DNA of 64,000 bases from a virus. Its lineage: Duplodnaviria; Caudoviricetes. The stretch lies in the IMG/VR virus record IMGVR_UViG_2974623298_000001, positions 12,262 to 76,261 of that record; one strand, 5' to 3'. This document shows, in pieces, positions 50,578 to 64,000 of this stretch. Positions within the stretch are counted from its first letter, which is position 1. The number at the start of each line of letters is the position of its first letter. Made by a program: the position numbers and the translations under genes. The notes beneath the pieces were generated by a model. That model had not been told where the DNA came from. It saw nothing but the letters and a program-made list of their open reading frames with translations, and made no database searches.

Positions 50578-51086
50578 TAGGTGTCCTCGATTCGTCTTGT
50601 CTGGTTGCGGTACTCGGGTGGCGGTAGCAGGCGCTCGTCGGTAGGATCGAAGTTCCGTGGACGCCAGGGCTTTATGCCTGGCCCAGTGATCGGCCCGTTG
50701 ATCGGGTAGCTCCCGACCACTGCTGCTTTCTTTCTCTGCTTGGCCAGTATCCTTCGGCCTCGCTTGTTCCTACCTTGCTCGGTGTTCGTGCGGCGAAGCC
50801 ACTGTTCCTCGGTCTCGTCATACCAGCGCCCTATTTCCTTTGGCCCCACCCAGATGGTGCGCTCGGGGAGTCGGTGGCCCCGCCTCCTGTTGCACAGCAT
50901 GTGCGTTGGCCTCAAGTTTGACTTGCTGTCCGTGCCGCCGAGAAACTTTGGTATATAGTGATCCGCGTTGAAGTACCAGTATCCGGTAGTAAGAGTGTAG
51001 TCGATCTCCTCTCCACATATCCAGCACGGCGGCTGGAGCAAGCGACACTCGCGCTTGAAGCTCATGATGGGTCGGAGTTCGGTCAT
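50577..51086 (-). CDS. HNH endonuclease
   Basis: CWICG, DHYIP..GG, SNLRPTHMLCN; ATG at 51086. Confidence 0.85.
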   Translation of the reverse strand: MTELRPIMSFKRECRLLQPPCWICGEEIDYTLTTGYWYFNADHYIPKFLGGTDSKSNLRPTHMLCNRRRGHRLPERTIWVGPKEIGRWYDETEEQWLRRTNTEQGRNKRGRRILAKQRKKAAVVGSYPINGPITGPGIKPWRPRNFDPTDERLLPPPEYRNQTRRIEDT

Positions 51087-51370
51087 CCGAAACCGCCGGA
51101 CTCCATCACCTTCAACCGCACCTTGCCACGCTGCGCACGGTCGAGCCCACCCTTGACGTGGTAACCCTTGGGGTAGGTGTATGTGCGTCTCGTGATGAAG
51201 CCCGTCCGACGCTCGACCAGCGCACGTCGGCGAAGCCCACACCGCAGGCACCCGAGTGTTTCCCAGTACCCTTCGGCACTGAAGATGATGTCACCCACTG
51301 CATCCCAAGCGTGGCCGTAGGTGCGGCAGCGTGCGTGATCATCGTCGAGTGTGACCTTACCTATCTTCAT
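51083..51370 (-). CDS. Hypothetical protein (Cys/His motif)
   Basis: CRTYGHAW...CLRC. Confidence 0.65.
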   Translation of the reverse strand: MKIGKVTLDDDHARCRTYGHAWDAVGDIIFSAEGYWETLGCLRCGLRRRALVERRTGFITRRTYTYPKGYHVKGGLDRAQRGKVRLKVMESGGFG

Positions 51371-61813: not shown

Positions 61814-62218
61814 CTAGCGTGCGCGACGACGTGCCAGTTTTGCGGCCGCTTTTTCGCGTTTTGCGGCGGCGTTTTCACGTGCGATACGTTGCGGCGACTT
61901 TGTGTCGACGGTCCGGACCGGTACGGTGGTCAATTTCGGCGCGCGGAATTGCGTGTTATTGAATTCTTTCATTTCACGGTCGGCGTAGAATTCGCGCCAA
62001 TTCGTATCGGGATCATAACAATCCAGTTTTCCATCCACGTGCCAATTGTTCTCGTTTGCGGCTTCGCGGATATTGGCATCCATTTGGTTCAATTCCGCGC
62101 CGGTATGTCCAAGATTTTTCGATAGTGCCGTGCCACGCGATGCCGTTAGTGACTTTCGTTCGGTCACGCGGACATCACGCATGATTCCGTATCCGCGACC
62201 GGTGATGTTATGTTGCAT
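61814..62218 (-). CDS. Hypothetical protein (first gene of the leftward operon)
   Basis: ATG at 62218 after AGGGG. Confidence 0.6.
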   Translation of the reverse strand: MQHNITGRGYGIMRDVRVTERKSLTASRGTALSKNLGHTGAELNQMDANIREAANENNWHVDGKLDCYDPDTNWREFYADREMKEFNNTQFRAPKLTTVPVRTVDTKSPQRIARENAAAKREKAAAKLARRRAR

Positions 62219-63144
62219 ATCTTTTCCCCTAATGTGTAGGAATTGTGCCACGCTAGCTATTCGTAATTCTTTTACGAATTACTAGCGCGAAACAATTCGG
62301 TTAATGGATCTAATCGAATTGTATCGCTAATTTGTCTGATTCATTAGTTCGCATTTAATGGTACTAGCTATATTCCCATTAACCTAACAATTCAGACACA
62401 ACATAATGTAGGCCGTTCACGGATACCTAGGACATGTCAACTAGTAGTGCCGCTATCCCCTACGCTACGTTTCATTTTTCGCACCATATCCGCGTGATCG
62501 CTACCGACATCTAACATCGGCGATCATCCAATTTTTCGGACGCCCGTGTACGATTGTCTAGTCCACCGCTAACCCGTAGGTGCGCTAGTGGTACTAGTTG
62601 TTAGTGGCGCTAGCGGTGGCGCGTACCGGGACCGGTCGACCGCGCGTCGGCCCGACCGGGACGACCACCGAACTAACTAACGACTAACAACTAGAACACT
62701 ACGCCCGGTGGTACTAGTTGTCTATAATCAAATCGTTATGATCGGAAGTCGGAAAAATCTTGACATGTAGTACTAGTAGGGTGTATCGCGCACATGTCGC
62801 GGTAGGGATAGGTAGGGGCACTTGGTACAAGGGTTGGTACAATCGCGATCGGCCGGCCGAATAGTTGCATAGCTCAACTAACGAGTTGTGATAGTGAATA
62901 CTGAATGCGCTATAGCAAAGATGTACCATAGTGAATGTTCTTTGTGATACTGGATTTAATTGGTGATAGTGAACTTAATTTGAGATAGTGCATTTAATTC
63001 AGTGTAGTAAAGAATGTTTGTGATAGTGAATGTTCTTTACTACAGCGGATTATATGTGTGATAGTGAACGTTCTTTGTAATACTGAATTAAATGTAGGAT
63101 CATGAATATCTTTGTGATACTGGATTAGATGTAGGGTAGCAAAG

Positions 63145-63163
63145 ATAGGGTAGGCTTACCTAT
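63145..63163. promoter_or_regulatory. IdeR/DtxR-like iron box (16/19)
   Basis: ATAGGGTAGGCTTACCTAT vs TWAGGTWAGSCTWACCTWA. Confidence 0.55.
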
Positions 63164-63254
63164 GTGTAGTGAGCATATGTACCAGTCGTTGTAGTGGTAC
63201 ATGGCTTGGTACAATGAATAGTTGTATCGTGCAACTACTATGACTCGTTGTATA

Positions 63255-63273
63255 GTAGGTAAGCCTAACCTAA
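63255..63273. promoter_or_regulatory. IdeR/DtxR-like iron box (18/19)
   Basis: GTAGGTAAGCCTAACCTAA vs TWAGGTWAGSCTWACCTWA. Confidence 0.75.
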
Positions 63274-63920
63274 GTAGACATGTGTCTAGACATCCGTCCA
63301 GGCGGGTGTATGTACCTACCGTTGTAGCAGGTACAATGGTAGGTACAAACGAGAATTGACGCGCATCTAACCATATGGCAATGGTGGAAGTCAAATCGTG
63401 ACTCCCAACATGTGGGATTAGAACGTGTTCATCGGATGTTACCGAACGAGTGGTGTAACGGGTCAATGCCGTGGTCAACGTGGTACTAGCGTGTTACCCG
63501 ATCGGTCTGTATCGAACGCTAGCGGCCGAAAATTGGGTTAGTGGTACTAGGACGACCAAACGGGGGTCTAGCGCGTCTACGGGCCATCTAGGGGCGAGAG
63601 CAAACATTCTCGATTTTGTCAAATCGGGCCCAAAACCCTAGACCTAGGGTTGAGTGTTGACAACGCGGAAAAAGTGTGCATCGCGCCAAAACCGATAGTT
63701 GCATCAAGCAACTAAATATCTTGAATCGTGCAACGTGGACTTTGCGATAGTGAATGTTGTGATAGTGAAACTGAGATGTGTTATCTCAAAGCATAGCTAT
63801 GCGTCGTAAGTGCATCTTTATTCAGACGACGCCCGTGTTCAGTTGAGCATTGCAACGACTTTTAGTTGCGTGTTGCATCTGATAACGTTGAAGGTCGCAA
63901 CTAATTTTCGCCGACCAGAG

Positions 63921-63939
63921 CAAGGTAAGCCTAACCTAA
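63921..63939. promoter_or_regulatory. IdeR/DtxR-like iron box (18/19)
   Basis: CAAGGTAAGCCTAACCTAA vs TWAGGTWAGSCTWACCTWA. Confidence 0.75.
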
Positions 63940-64000
63940 CTTTGCTAGCGTGGATTTGGGATGCAACTTTGGAAAGGGTGTGTGCTAGCGTGAAGCTCTC

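Follow-up and report, generated by a model that had tools for sequence, protein, structure and literature searches.

IdeR-type iron boxes in the gene-free terminal control region of a lytic Gordonia phage and in other actinophages

Why would an apparently lytic phage keep sequences that resemble the operators of a bacterial iron repressor in a part of its genome that has no genes? The question is raised by a stretch of 64,000 nucleotides (hereafter, the window), which is the right part (positions 12262-76261) of a virus record that is 76,261 bp long and has direct terminal repeats. A preliminary description of this DNA had pointed to three boxes of the actinobacterial IdeR/DtxR type near its right end. 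We scored 19-bp palindromes against the IdeR/DtxR consensus (TTAGGTTAGSCTAACCTAA) in a pattern search that allowed up to three mismatches, and the search recovered the three boxes at the positions and with the scores reported before: box A at 63145-63163 (16/19, three mismatches), box B at 63255-63273 (18/19, one mismatch) and box D at 63921-63939 (18/19, one mismatch). Box A directly follows an array of repeats phased at 19 bp, and box D lies inside the terminal repeat and starts 80 bases before the right end of the genome.

The right 1.7 kb of the window matched the right ends of 63 Gordonia phage records, all matches stopping at the last base of the record, and the closest relative in this region was BenoitCattle (95% identity). 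The phage belongs to cluster CS2 (Montyvirus) of the Gordonia phages and is of the lytic type, as had been supposed from the window itself; phages of this cluster lack integrase and repressor genes and are regarded as lytic (PMC4982279). The genome begins and ends with the same 191 bases, the identity not extending to 192, and the right copy of this direct terminal repeat is at 63810-64000; a repeat of 191 bp is known for cluster CS2 phages (PMC5559632). The right end had been described as non-coding, and indeed no gene is annotated within 62290-64000 in any relative. This gene-free, AT-rich control hub is located upstream of a leftward early and replication arm of ~36 kb. Its GC content is 45.6%, compared with 58.6% for the phage and ~68% for the host, with troughs of 32-36%, and boxes A and B are situated at the edge of the deepest trough. 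The first gene of the leftward arm (61814-62251, minus strand) encodes a hypothetical protein and is a homologue of BenoitCattle gene 109. In BenoitCattle, all the genes from 39 to 109 are oriented leftward, away from the right end, the final ~1.78 kb is without annotation, and the leftward order begins with small hypothetical genes, followed by those for an ASCE ATPase, a CobT-like protein, helicases, a clamp, DnaQ, a Cas4 exonuclease and WhiB. The likely metal clients that had been named for the window (WhiB, a Cas4-like nuclease and an ATPase) thus all have a counterpart in the closest annotated relative. At least four DNA-binding proteins are also annotated in BenoitCattle. The left end of the genome has ~830 bp of gene-free DNA, followed by leftward helicase and primase genes.

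Such boxes are very unlikely to arise by chance in DNA of this composition. At up to three mismatches, exactly three sites were present in the 64-kb window and none in 100 dinucleotide-preserving shuffles of it, and in simulated hubs of the same dinucleotide make-up 0.0047 sites (~0.005) would be expected against the three observed. The whole 76,261-bp genome contained only one further site, at 112-130, which is the left-end copy of box D since this box sits in the terminal repeat; virion DNA therefore has four boxes. A scan of the genome and its relatives had been proposed in the preliminary description; by the pattern search, the genomic sites were confined to terminal DNA, and sites were present in all 16 relatives. 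It has been reported that each of the four quintets of an IdeR box requires a T as its third base and a C as its first or second base (PMC8464063), and boxes A, B and D each have four of four quintets valid by this minimal rule. The full consensus is also known, together with dissociation constants of 30-200 nM and base contacts made by Ser37, Pro39, Thr40 and Gln43 (PMC10317159). In length, palindromic form and the presence of four CCTAA-type quintets, the phage sites agree with the actinobacterial IdeR/DtxR boxes (PMC10317159; PMC8464063), and the regulator of the host has an identical recognition helix. Judged by sequence, the three sites in the window are IdeR-type iron boxes.

What distinguishes them from the classical iron boxes is their place, which is not a promoter for iron homeostasis but a gene-free terminal hub on the DNA of a lytic phage. 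The distance from the boxes to the first leftward gene is 0.9-1.7 kb, and no gene lies within 900 bp of them. In agreement with the earlier remark that neither an iron gene nor a toxin accompanies the boxes, the neighboring genes are small leftward hypothetical genes, a helicase and a primase. No promoter of an iron-uptake, iron-storage or iron-dependent gene was found at the boxes, and no box overlaps the promoter of a cargo gene.

The host genome that we examined was that of G. terrae B62 (5.3 Mb). Its IdeR (234 aa; L135:991-1695, minus strand) matches M. tuberculosis IdeR 1FX7 with an E-value of 5e-104, and the two N-terminal DNA-binding domains are almost identical: the base-contacting residues Ser37, Pro39, Thr40 and Gln43 are all present, and the segment QSGPTVSQTV is the same in both. 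Only seven sites with up to three mismatches were found in the 5.3 Mb, none of them with fewer than two mismatches. Three of the seven are located beside a divergent NRPS/adenylation pair, a siderophore-interacting protein gene and an MspA/adenylation pair, and the motif therefore marks iron genes in G. terrae. Phage boxes B and D are closer to the consensus than any of these host sites; box A, with its three mismatches, is level with the weakest. The host carries at least four genes of the Lsr2 family, the phage none.

The hub in which the boxes are embedded is a mosaic of further operator-like motifs. An iteron-like array (62885-63130, plus strand), built from a 13-nt unit at 19-bp or 38-bp spacing, occupies the deepest GC trough (32-36%). 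We counted seven to nine copies of the TGTGATAGTGAAT-type unit in these most AT-rich 250 bp, and related units recur at 63741-63773. Together with a GCAAAG flank, boxes A and D make up the arms (63137-63161 and 63923-63947) of a 25-bp inverted repeat; these arms are 92% complementary and 761 bp apart. A second family of 19-bp palindromes (TAGTTGCA-N3-TGCAACTA) has one member at 63219-63237 and other copies at 62862-62880, 63696-63714 and 63863-63881, which makes four copies where 0.1 would be expected; about seven copies were seen in phage Woes. We also considered whether this second palindrome could be the box of a global regulator of the host, and this is probably not the case: matches in the host were no more common than those of a reversed control, and only one good site was found. 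Between boxes A and B, an extended -10-like motif, TGGTACAAT, points rightward (63207-63215, plus strand), with similar copies at 62835 and 63329. Relative to the putative start site of this motif, box A would lie ~60-77 bp upstream and box B ~33-51 bp downstream. The motif at 63207 is retained as TGnTAnnnT in 14 of 17 phages. In a scan of the hub for sigma-70 consensus promoters, the result was no better than chance, with fewer sites than in shuffles, and all candidates from a search for extended -10 and -35/-10 motifs were ambiguous.

We compared 16 relatives that are 75-95% identical to the window phage over the hub, which gave an alignment of 17 phages. Absence of the boxes from relatives had been named beforehand as an outcome that would speak against an IdeR site, and what we observed was their presence at corresponding positions in 16 of 16, near -850, -740 and -80 relative to the right end, a fourth box near -303 being present in many of these phages. 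The counterpart of box A was located between about -845 and -900 in all 16 relatives. Box B was perfect (no mismatch) in nine of the 16, with its core 15 positions 98% conserved. Box D started 80 bases before the right end in 15 relatives and 81 bases before it in Poland, and its right half has drifted in four relatives, still within the minimal rule. The order of elements in the aligned hub was phased repeats, GCAAAG flank, box A, GTACC/GGTAC and TGGTACAA motifs, second palindrome, box B and TAGACA palindrome. We had also tried conservation as such as a discriminator for the boxes and dropped it: the hub is strongly conserved throughout, with a mean column conservation of 0.84 in the 17 phages, and 23-33% of its 19-mers are conserved at least as well as the boxes. 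Conservation is therefore a sign of constraint on the hub and not on the boxes in particular. To judge from these alignments, the evidence specific to the boxes is that their variation obeys the IdeR rule. Flips of the central GCC/GGC and changes at outer positions all stayed within the consensus, and in every scored variant at sites A, B and D, all four quintets kept to the minimal rule. This scoring used exact 19-nt extracts only, extracts of 20 and 42 nt from the alignment being left out, and it covered all variants of site D and some of those at A and B.

The relatives also differ in how the boxes are combined with the promoter-like motifs. In Hotorobo-type phages, 2 bp separate the end of box B from a TGGTACAAT motif, and two such motifs directly follow the box; in these phages box B would cover approximately positions -36 to -18 of an extended -10 promoter. 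The clade of the window phage lacks the corresponding 23-bp piece, and here boxes A and B stand on either side of another such motif, that at 63207. At the fourth site, Hotorobo-type phages have an IdeR-type box just downstream of a conserved TTGACA element, and the clade of the window phage has the second palindrome (the copy at 63696) in place of an IdeR-type box. Such a swap of one operator for another argues for a regulatory role. Outside subcluster CS2, phage Woes (CS3) keeps a single box, which adjoins the second palindrome and lies ~700 bp before the right end, a distance similar to that of box B. The boxes were absent from the sister subclusters CS1 (GTE7 and GMA7) and CS4 (Katyusha) and are therefore not essential to this type of phage.

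The explanation that we favor, to which we give about an even chance, is that the boxes are genuine IdeR operators held by selection, which would couple transcription from the hub to iron, most likely in a positive sense. We infer the binding of IdeR, the promoters affected and the sign of the effect from the arrangement of the sites. In an iron-replete cell, Fe2+-IdeR would occupy the boxes, two dimers on each, and the bound regulator would determine how active the hub's own promoters are. The start of the infection program would thereby be tied to the supply of iron. The most likely sign is positive, as at bfrB of M. tuberculosis, and IdeR might act by countering silencing by Lsr2; classical repression or a roadblock would be the alternative. 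Genes activated by IdeR tend to carry several boxes, and at bfrB there are four, one of which overlaps the -35 region, where IdeR displaces Lsr2 (PMC10317159). IdeR is the only Lsr2 counter-silencer that has been studied, and a single inserted repressor operator is able to activate silenced AT-rich prophage promoters (PMC7002338). Multiple boxes at the edge of a trough of 32-36% GC and Lsr2 genes in the host would fit a context of the bfrB type, the assignment of promoters being uncertain. What speaks against control of the hub by IdeR is the long distance between the boxes and the first leftward gene, the chance-level outcome of the promoter scans, the strong conservation of the hub as a whole and the absence of boxes from CS1 and CS4.

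The comparison with bfrB (Kurthkoti 2015, as summarized in PMC10317159 and PMC7002338) rests on multiple IdeR boxes in AT-rich DNA, the presence of Lsr2 in the host and, in Hotorobo-type phages, a box immediately adjoining the -35 region that belongs to an extended -10-like motif. On the other hand, the phage boxes are spread over ~800 bp and are not in tandem (those of the Rhodococcus phage Trina are), and a role of Lsr2 in the hub is a proposal of ours. CgpS-silenced prophage promoters with an inserted GntR operator provide a second precedent, in which one host-repressor operator in an AT-rich phage promoter turns the repressor into an activator (PMC7002338); that system is engineered and belongs to Corynebacterium, whereas natural use of the principle by a lytic phage is without description.

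The closest working analogues of the phage boxes are the DtxR box of corynephage tox and the Spo0A boxes of phi29 and Nf. The tox operator of corynephage beta is a DtxR box on phage DNA, and the phage sites described here resemble it as operators of a host iron repressor carried by a phage. However, tox has a single box over the promoter of one cargo gene in a temperate phage, whereas here there are several boxes and no cargo gene, in a lytic one. In phi29 and Nf, a lytic phage has several sites for a global regulator of the host at early promoters and near the genome ends, and uses these Spo0A boxes to adapt the lytic program to the state of the host (PMC2731898). The Gordonia phage likewise has several boxes of a host-regulator type at its early control region and ends. 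The regulator, the signal (sporulation versus iron) and the host phylum are different, and binding and effects have been demonstrated for phi29 but are predicted here. The type of site is classical, but its placement, in a terminal control region of a lytic phage with no iron gene, is not. In the literature on the box sequences, on IdeR and phage, and on Gordonia, cluster M and Rhodococcus phages, we found no mention of IdeR boxes there; the work on cluster M repeats (CR1-CR4; J Virol 2014) was outside the scope of this search.

Boxes of the same type recurred in phages unrelated to the window phage. When box dimers were compared by BLAST with GenBank phages, boxes in unannotated terminal DNA were found in three groups: Gordonia phages of CS2/CS3, cluster M mycobacteriophages and large Rhodococcus phages. 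The carriers in cluster M were Rey, MrMagoo, Aziz, Estes, GenevaB15 and GardenSalsa. Rey has a single box with one mismatch (L160, positions 416-434), ~415 bp from its right end and within a gene-free right end of 1.7 kb upstream of leftward genes, and the 18-nt core of this box is identical in the five other phages. Among the Rhodococcus phages, Trina, NiceHouse, Francesca and Dorin had boxes at the same distance from the genome ends. The terminal repeat of Trina (L161, positions 296-394 and 2742-2834) contains five head-to-tail boxes with an exact period of 20 bp and three more with a period of 37 bp; these are duplicated at the other genome end, which amounts to 16 boxes per virion.

We also scanned IMG/VR for perfect boxes, which gave 38 stretches. 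Single perfect boxes may be due to chance because the collection is large, and only contigs with more than one box were counted as evidence. Several unrelated low-GC contigs had gene-free stretches longer than 1 kb beside terminase and portal genes, and these stretches held two or three perfect boxes. The multi-box contigs were L024 (4047-4150), L030 (12433-12918), L034 (7202-7591) and L038 (1276-1943), each with two to three perfect boxes. In L024, L030 and L034, the boxes lie in long, gene-free, repeat-rich stretches that adjoin a gene for a terminase, a portal or an HTH protein; in L038, two boxes flank a dual-specificity phosphatase gene, which itself adjoins the terminase gene. Their portal and terminase proteins indicate that the freshwater contigs are actinophages. 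No boxes were found in the cultured relatives of these contigs (DSL-LC01, Pumpernickel, Atuin and GodonK). When the hub of the window was compared with the cluster M, Rhodococcus and freshwater loci, similarity was confined to the box itself.

We tentatively consider it possible, and well short of probable, that arrays of IdeR operators in terminal non-coding hubs are a general device that phages of Mycobacteriales and of other Actinobacteria evolved convergently. With such arrays and boxes of other host regulators (a LexA-type box is found in the same junction region here), lytic phages would break Lsr2 silencing of AT-rich early regions only in an iron-replete host, or would act as a sponge for the regulator. 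The lineages behind this proposal are the Gordonia phages of CS2/CS3, the Mycobacterium phages of cluster M, the CE-like Rhodococcus phages and the freshwater actinophages. The recurrence in unrelated phages of Mycobacteriales, the box in the terminal repeat, the mosaic hub with its operator-like motifs and the bfrB/Lsr2 precedent all go beyond what the preliminary description had noticed.

Among the alternatives to iron-dependent control of the hub, an unlikely one is that the boxes have no role on phage genes and serve as a sponge for IdeR. Replication would then produce hundreds of high-affinity boxes, which would titrate Fe-IdeR, derepress the siderophore and iron-uptake genes of the host and thereby feed the Fe-S proteins of the phage (WhiB and the Cas4 nuclease, both annotated in BenoitCattle). 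The tandem arrays of Trina, with their 16 boxes per virion, speak for such a decoy, and two of the three phage boxes are nearer to the consensus than the seven best host sites, box A tying the weakest; in addition, no recognizable gene start was found beside the boxes. However, three boxes per genome are few. Their positions are fixed within a few bases throughout the genus, beside promoter-like and operator-like motifs, which would be needless for a pure decoy, and the induction of iron uptake would presumably be slow compared with the lytic cycle.

Still more doubtful is an architectural role, in which IdeR would bend or anchor the DNA, either to help fire an origin at the iteron-like array or, in packaging, to help the terminal repeat to be recognized and processed. 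Box A abuts the 19-bp-phased repeats in the deepest AT-rich trough, the near-constant distance of box D from the physical end (80 bases in 15 of 16 relatives, 81 in Poland) would suit a terminal function, and the pairing of boxes A and D as 25-bp inverted copies, including the GCAAAG flank, could be read in the same way, as could the location of the boxes in freshwater contigs between terminase and portal genes. There is also a precedent in host Spo0A, which binds the terminal origins of phi29 and Nf (PMC2731898). On the other hand, four relatives show drift in the right half of box D, even if within the minimal rule; CS1 and CS4 share the genome plan but have no boxes; and a metal-dependent protein would be an odd choice for an obligatory structural step.

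We regard as similarly improbable that a dimeric DNA-binding protein of the phage itself recognizes the palindromes, their likeness to iron boxes being coincidence or mimicry. Several other palindrome and repeat families in the hub probably do have phage-encoded binders, at least four DNA-binding proteins are annotated in BenoitCattle, and at the fourth box position the clade of the window phage holds a different palindrome. The preliminary description had named binding by a phage protein as a result that would contradict its reading, and we found no DtxR-like protein encoded by this phage. No Fe_dep_repress domain was detected in it at E-values up to 10, and none was detected at E-values up to 1 in Woes, Rey, Trina and the IMG/VR contigs L030 and L038, the last two being fragments that are 9% and 24% complete, respectively; a DtxR-type domain is thus absent from every phage examined. 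Homologues in both Rey and Trina were detected for none of the ORFs of the window phage, so that no ORF was common to the three box-carrying lineages, yet all of their hosts have IdeR. Similarity limited to the box, with no common ORF, points to a host factor as the common one, since all hosts are Actinobacteria with IdeR. It is also very unlikely that a chance match of 18-19/19 would be kept in 16 phages under the quintet rule. A phage-encoded binder is therefore unlikely, remote structural homologues being possible. Finally, that the boxes are neutral leftovers, such as captured host promoter DNA with no present function, might be suggested by their absence from CS1 and CS4 and by the loss of the fourth site in some clades, but it is highly improbable given that the boxes hold their positions while the flanks diverge to 75-80% identity, that their variants remain within the consensus and that boxes arose independently in other phage lineages.

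Coming back to the operator reading, the sequences suggest that the box-carrying phages probably read or exploit the iron state of the host. If IdeR does occupy these boxes, lytic actinophages would be connected to the iron sensor of the host, and the supply of iron would alter the success of infection. This would bear on the ecology of phages in soil and water that are poor in iron. As the box is found in cluster M phages, it would also matter for how far phage therapy against mycobacteria depends on iron. Such a connection would also be the first natural use by a phage of a host repressor as an Lsr2 counter-silencer.

Several further elements of the terminal DNA were noticed. An extended -10-like motif, TGGCACAAT, is present on the minus strand at 62242-62250, within a 27-bp inverted repeat (62240-62298), and is a candidate early promoter with an operator because it lies just upstream of the annotated start of the first leftward gene in the relatives. 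A perfect 18-bp palindrome (AACCCTAG-N2-CTAGGGTT) at 63634-63651 is kept in all relatives and in Woes and overlaps a leftward -35/-10-like pair. In an Rfam scan of the hub, the sole match was a chance microRNA below the threshold. Of all ORFs of the phage, a homologue in mycobacteriophage Rey (35% over 81 aa) was detected for only one, that of a hypothetical protein of 95 aa (51083-51370, minus strand) without a Pfam match. In the left-end non-coding DNA, a near-perfect actinobacterial box of the LexA/SOS type is located at genome positions 338-353, 147 bp past the terminal repeat, with the arms CGAAC/GTTCG and one mismatch to TCGAAC-N4-GTTCGA; ~0.28 such sites would be expected per genome. 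The box was found at the same place in Hotorobo and in BenoitCattle, where the spacer differs.
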